Origin: Escherichia coli
GTDB lineage: Bacteria > Pseudomonadota > Gammaproteobacteria > Enterobacterales > Enterobacteriaceae
Direction: 5' to 3' (one strand)
Assembly: GCF_002854065.1 (NCBI RefSeq)
Contig: NZ_CP024147.1
Length of the DNA: 64,000 nt
Every line of letters begins with the position of its first letter. Position 1 is the stretch's first letter. Under the pieces are notes generated by a model. It searched no databases, had not been told where the DNA came from, and saw only the letters and a list, made by a program, of their open reading frames with translations. The position numbers were made by a program, and so were the translations under genes. Positions 35,387 through 36,379 of the stretch are shown piece after piece.

Positions 35387-36379
<993 letters not shown>

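Follow-up and report, generated by a model that had tools for sequence, protein, structure and literature searches.

The aphA gene in the stretch of Escherichia coli DNA analysed here (64,000 nucleotides of contig NZ_CP024147.1, hereafter the window) carries an amber codon in place of Trp180. We hold with high confidence that this W180amber change is a natural loss-of-function allele of the gene for AphA, a non-essential periplasmic acid phosphatase, vertically inherited in one E. coli lineage.

The gene, which belongs to the class B acid phosphatases/phosphotransferases, lies on the plus strand in the usual order alr - tyrB - aphA - yjbQ - yjbR - uvrA. Its full former frame spans positions 35666..36379 and comprises 237 codons plus the stop. 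It begins at the ATG at 35666 (MRKIT...) and ends at the natural stop TGA at 36377-36379, preceded by ...VNSEY. The part still translated covers 35666..36202 (179 codons). The premature TAG follows at 36203..36205, in place of TGG, and the changed base is 36204 (G to A). The next 57 codons (36206..36376) are untranslated but intact, and they encode the YGDSDND motif. The original prediction had described an in-frame TAG in the AphA frame begun at 35666, with 57 open codons after it down to the natural stop. Reading the sequence confirmed the codon, the coordinates and the counts.

The comparison with solved structures shows what was at this position before the change. The E. coli AphA structures 1n8n and 2b82, and the Salmonella AphA 1z5g, have a tryptophan there (mature Trp155), as had been claimed for reference AphA. 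Past the TAG, the 57 codons encode the same amino acids as residues 156-212 of 1n8n (100% identity). Besides the stop, N161S is the sole difference between the window protein and the E. coli chains 1n8n and 2b82.

We estimated the frequency of the allele with 41-mers centred on the mutated base, for which a megablast match is seeded only if the central base agrees. The TGG 41-mer is present in 5239 of the 5426 complete E. coli genomes, and the TAG 41-mer in only three (0.06%). The nearest intact haplotype is that of strain TR01, and the only differences between its aphA coding sequence and that of the window lie at nucleotides 251 and 539. Therefore, the stop is a single G-to-A transition, and the proposed change from TGG to TAG agrees with both comparisons.

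The effect on the protein was evaluated with profile searches. Once the Trp is put back, the NCBIfam profile TIGR01672 (AphA equivalog) is matched with 422 bits over positions 1-237 of 237, against a cut-off of 195.8. The read-through sequence also matches Pfam PF03767 (E = 4e-29). In comparison, the 179-aa product obtains 295 bits with TIGR01672 and aligns to no more than positions 1-178 of the 237 in the profile. This product conserves the signal peptide (residues 1-25) and Lys177 (mature K152). Likewise, it keeps the first aspartate pair, D69/D71 (mature D44/D46), in the FDIDDT motif within residues 67-76. The second pair, D192/D196 (mature D167/D171), belongs to the YGDSDND motif at residues 190-196. 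This motif is encoded downstream of codon 180 and is absent from the translated product, as the original prediction had stated. The mature residue numbers D44, D46, K152, D167 and D171 are those of the structures of Calderone et al., and counting along the present sequence gives the same positions. Given that the second aspartate pair is untranslated, the locus is an aphA pseudogene and not a functional class B member.

Loss of AphA activity would be the most likely effect of the W180 stop, and it is expected because the second aspartate pair and the C-terminal tail are missing. The G-to-A transition turns TGG into TAG, and translation would stop after residue 179. The exported fragment would keep the first aspartate pair and Lys152. 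However, it would lack the C-terminal 57 residues and the second pair (D167, D171), which is required for Mg2+ binding and catalysis. Such a fragment is expected to be inactive and is probably unstable. According to a review (PMC8475336), both aspartate pairs are invariant among the class B phosphatases, and phosphomonoesterase activity depends on them. AphA is natively tetrameric, and it became a dimer when it carried a His tag at the C-terminus (PMC10694654). We also considered a re-initiation event giving a usable C-terminal fragment and rejected it. There is no ATG in the aphA frame past the stop, and the product would also lack a signal peptide.

Around the stop, the locus has not decayed any further. 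With respect to an intact allele, there is no change in the promoter region and the 166 bases upstream, in the signal peptide, in the 57 codons after the stop or in a hairpin that resembles a terminator. Therefore, the inactivation of aphA is evolutionarily recent, and the locus is a young pseudogene. The hairpin (36385..36407, plus strand) was found by a consensus scan only; it consists of a 10-bp stem followed by a T-rich tail. It suggests that aphA may form its own transcription unit, in which case no polar effect of the stop on yjbQ would be expected. An Rfam search of window positions 34400-36700 (E <= 1) gave no match; neither known RNA elements nor known recoding signals were found at the site.

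The spacer between tyrB and aphA (34558-35665) is 1.1 kb long, with about 30% GC. On the minus strand it holds an intact ORF (34779-35303; 161-174 aa), which has no match in Pfam, NCBIfam or PADLOC. Its counterpart in other strains has 67, 80, 128, 161 or 167 aa, and 67 aa is presumably the size of yjbS in K-12. In the two sister genomes described below, PGAP annotates this ORF as a 'frameshifted hypothetical protein'. Both of them also have a frameshift annotated in a gene of the DUF2713 family, at a position equivalent to about 26535-27558 of the window.

To place the allele in its lineage, 1001 bases around the stop were compared with the complete E. coli RefSeq genomes. Two of these are 100% identical over the query. 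They are strain 100416 (NZ_CM128593.1), from human stool in Gambia, and strain CUWW06 (NZ_CP182139.1), from wastewater in Thailand. The window shows 99.97% identity with 100416 across about 62 kb, and 99.98% with CUWW06 across 47,975 bases, with 8 scattered SNPs. These identities, together with the scattered SNPs, indicate that the window, 100416 and CUWW06 are different strains of one lineage. The draft assembly GCA_003291745.1 (locus L021) has the same aphA sequence as the window. The exact 179-aa product of the window haplotype was found on 155 contigs in public archives by exact look-up.

The description of the allele as a strain-specific loss of function is thus only partly maintained. 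The loss of function is supported, but the TAG is not strain-specific, being common to a lineage sampled in Gambia, in Thailand and in L021. The pseudogene state of aphA in this lineage is already known, since RefSeq files the sister-genome copies in this way (PGAP label: pseudogene, 'internal stop'). Our literature search found nothing specific on the W180amber allele of aphA.

Other differences between these genomes were observed in the window. It has two identical 768-bp copies of IS1 in the same orientation (48002-48769 and 49400-50167), both in espX5/yjcF. The 9-bp target duplications of the two copies are distinct (TCTCTTTTA and ATTGGCTCT), and the pair brackets a 630-bp piece of espX5/yjcF. 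The gene is intact in 100416. In CUWW06, yjcE is followed by an IS1 and then by a sil (silver/copper resistance) island.

The third complete genome with the TAG 41-mer is that of PCP06171, isolated from seawater in the Galapagos. Compared with the window, its aphA has 7 other differences, with 2 of them on each side of the stop at no more than 70 bases. A single base separates this aphA from an intact haplotype that is very common and is present for instance in ATCC 8739. Judged by these sites, the same mutation arose independently in PCP06171. We rejected gene conversion as an unlikely source, given that the two haplotypes differ on both sides of the stop, at nucleotides 482 and 492 (upstream) and at 597 and 607 (downstream).

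Stops at this codon are also present in other haplotypes. By exact look-up, the 179-aa product in its N161 form was found on 184 contigs. The DNA of its carriers shows TAG at codon 180 in L016, and TGA in L017 and in L018-L020, which represent three further haplotypes. Together with the window haplotype, they amount to at least four independent events at Trp180. A mutational hot spot at a Dcm site was considered and discarded: the context of codon 180, CAATGGCTGCAGG, contains no CCWGG.

Trp180 is not the only position where aphA has been interrupted. At the DNA level, where the check covered W180, W102 and Q174, we found W102* (both TAG and TGA) in three haplotypes and Q174* (TAA) in another three. 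Records of Shigella flexneri include the W102* product by name. The archives also contain products that end before W82, W109, Q121, Q179, Q182, R187, K177 and Y190, with 14-59 contigs each. These product counts are noisy. In control look-ups for codons that are not one change from a stop, 3 of 6 truncations were also found, on contigs of no more than 34 kb. Hence, a shortened product alone is no proof of a nonsense allele. Finally, an IS1 lies inside aphA in two complete genomes, TUM14664 and 102651. aphA is a dispensable gene that has been repeatedly knocked out at low frequency. Among these knock-outs, W180* has been sampled most, although it is not qualitatively different from the others.

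This recurrence could also be read as the result of selection. The inactivation of aphA would then be favoured in some niches, and W180* would be one of many convergent knock-outs, or even a preferred one that leaves a fragment with some residual non-catalytic role. At least four independent stops at W180, three each at W102 and Q174, and the IS1 insertions are in line with this idea. Likewise, no other truncated product in the look-ups is on as many contigs as those of W180* (184 and 155 contigs, versus 14-76 at other transition sites), and the allele has lasted long enough to reach three continents. Nevertheless, the TAG allele has only the very low frequency given above, and the contig counts mirror clonal sampling rather than independent events. 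In large collections, recurrent stops are expected at every transition-accessible site of any dispensable gene, and half of the control codons were positive too. For these reasons, we regard the adaptive origin of W180* as highly improbable. The broader idea that AphA loss was repeatedly selected in some E. coli or Shigella lineages, for example by sparing periplasmic nucleotides or cAMP-related signals, is slightly less so, but still quite improbable. If true, it would account for the four or more independent hits on one codon.

Another possibility in the original prediction was a suppressible amber marker, in which an amber or ochre suppressor tRNA of the strain still allows full-length AphA. 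TAG is the codon read by the classical suppressors. We searched for them with 41-mers centred on the anticodon change and built from the K-12 tRNA genes. The set has eight single-base alleles: supE, supF, supD, supP and supU (amber), and supB, supC and supG (ochre). Used alone, these 41-mers match 159 of the 5426 complete E. coli genomes, so such alleles do exist in the collection. The positive controls C600, DH5alpha, DH1, J53 and NEB 5-alpha were detected among the matches. However, of the 60 matches listed, almost every one is a K-12 laboratory derivative or a closely associated strain. In this listed set, 59 correspond to the supE (glnV/glnX CUA) segment, most of them in K-12 laboratory derivatives, and one, DSM 498, to the supD (serU CUA) segment.

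The suppressor 41-mers were also joined to a 101-mer of the TAG allele in one query. 100416 and CUWW06 ranked first with it, and the sole match in each genome was the aphA site. Thus, the stool and wastewater sister genomes contain none of the eight suppressor 41-mers, and no tRNA gene is present in the 64-kb window. With the controls positive and the search negative in both sister genomes, the suppressible marker is unsupported and we consider it extremely unlikely. At this UAG, whose next base is C, basal readthrough could yield traces of full-length protein.

A sequencing or assembly error over a true TGG, the last option of the original prediction, was not borne out and is next to impossible: the TAG is a single-base departure from the consensus of 5239 genomes, as such an error would be, but the site is not in a homopolymer, the exact shortened product occurs on 155 contigs from several archives, and the error is excluded because independent assemblies (the complete 100416 and CUWW06, from different continents, and the draft L021) carry the same TAG in an identical haplotype.

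The natural, vertically inherited loss-of-function allele remains the preferred reading, and it has some practical consequences. The aphA gene should be annotated as a pseudogene in this strain, in which class B acid phosphatase activity is predicted to be missing. The W180amber allele could be used as a lineage marker. In addition, the recurrent natural knock-out of aphA is a small example of the ongoing loss of dispensable periplasmic enzymes.

Compared with AphA of E. coli K-12 (P0AE22; structures 1n8n and 2b82; DDDD/HAD subfamily IIIB), the window has the same gene in the same tyrB - aphA - yjbQ - yjbR - uvrA context. The two proteins are identical save for N161S and the stop. Codon 180 is TAG instead of TGG, and the last 58 residues, which include GDSDND, are not made. 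The pseudogenes of 100416 and CUWW06 are the closest relatives, with an aphA that is nucleotide-identical to that of the window and has the same TAG. These genomes differ from the window elsewhere: 100416 lacks the two IS1 copies in espX5, and CUWW06 has the IS1 and the sil island after yjcE. The other aphA knock-outs (W180* in other haplotypes, W102*, Q174* and the IS1 insertions) affect the same gene through single events, and their loci are otherwise intact. Conversely, they are independent of the mutation in the window and differ from it in haplotype, position or mechanism.
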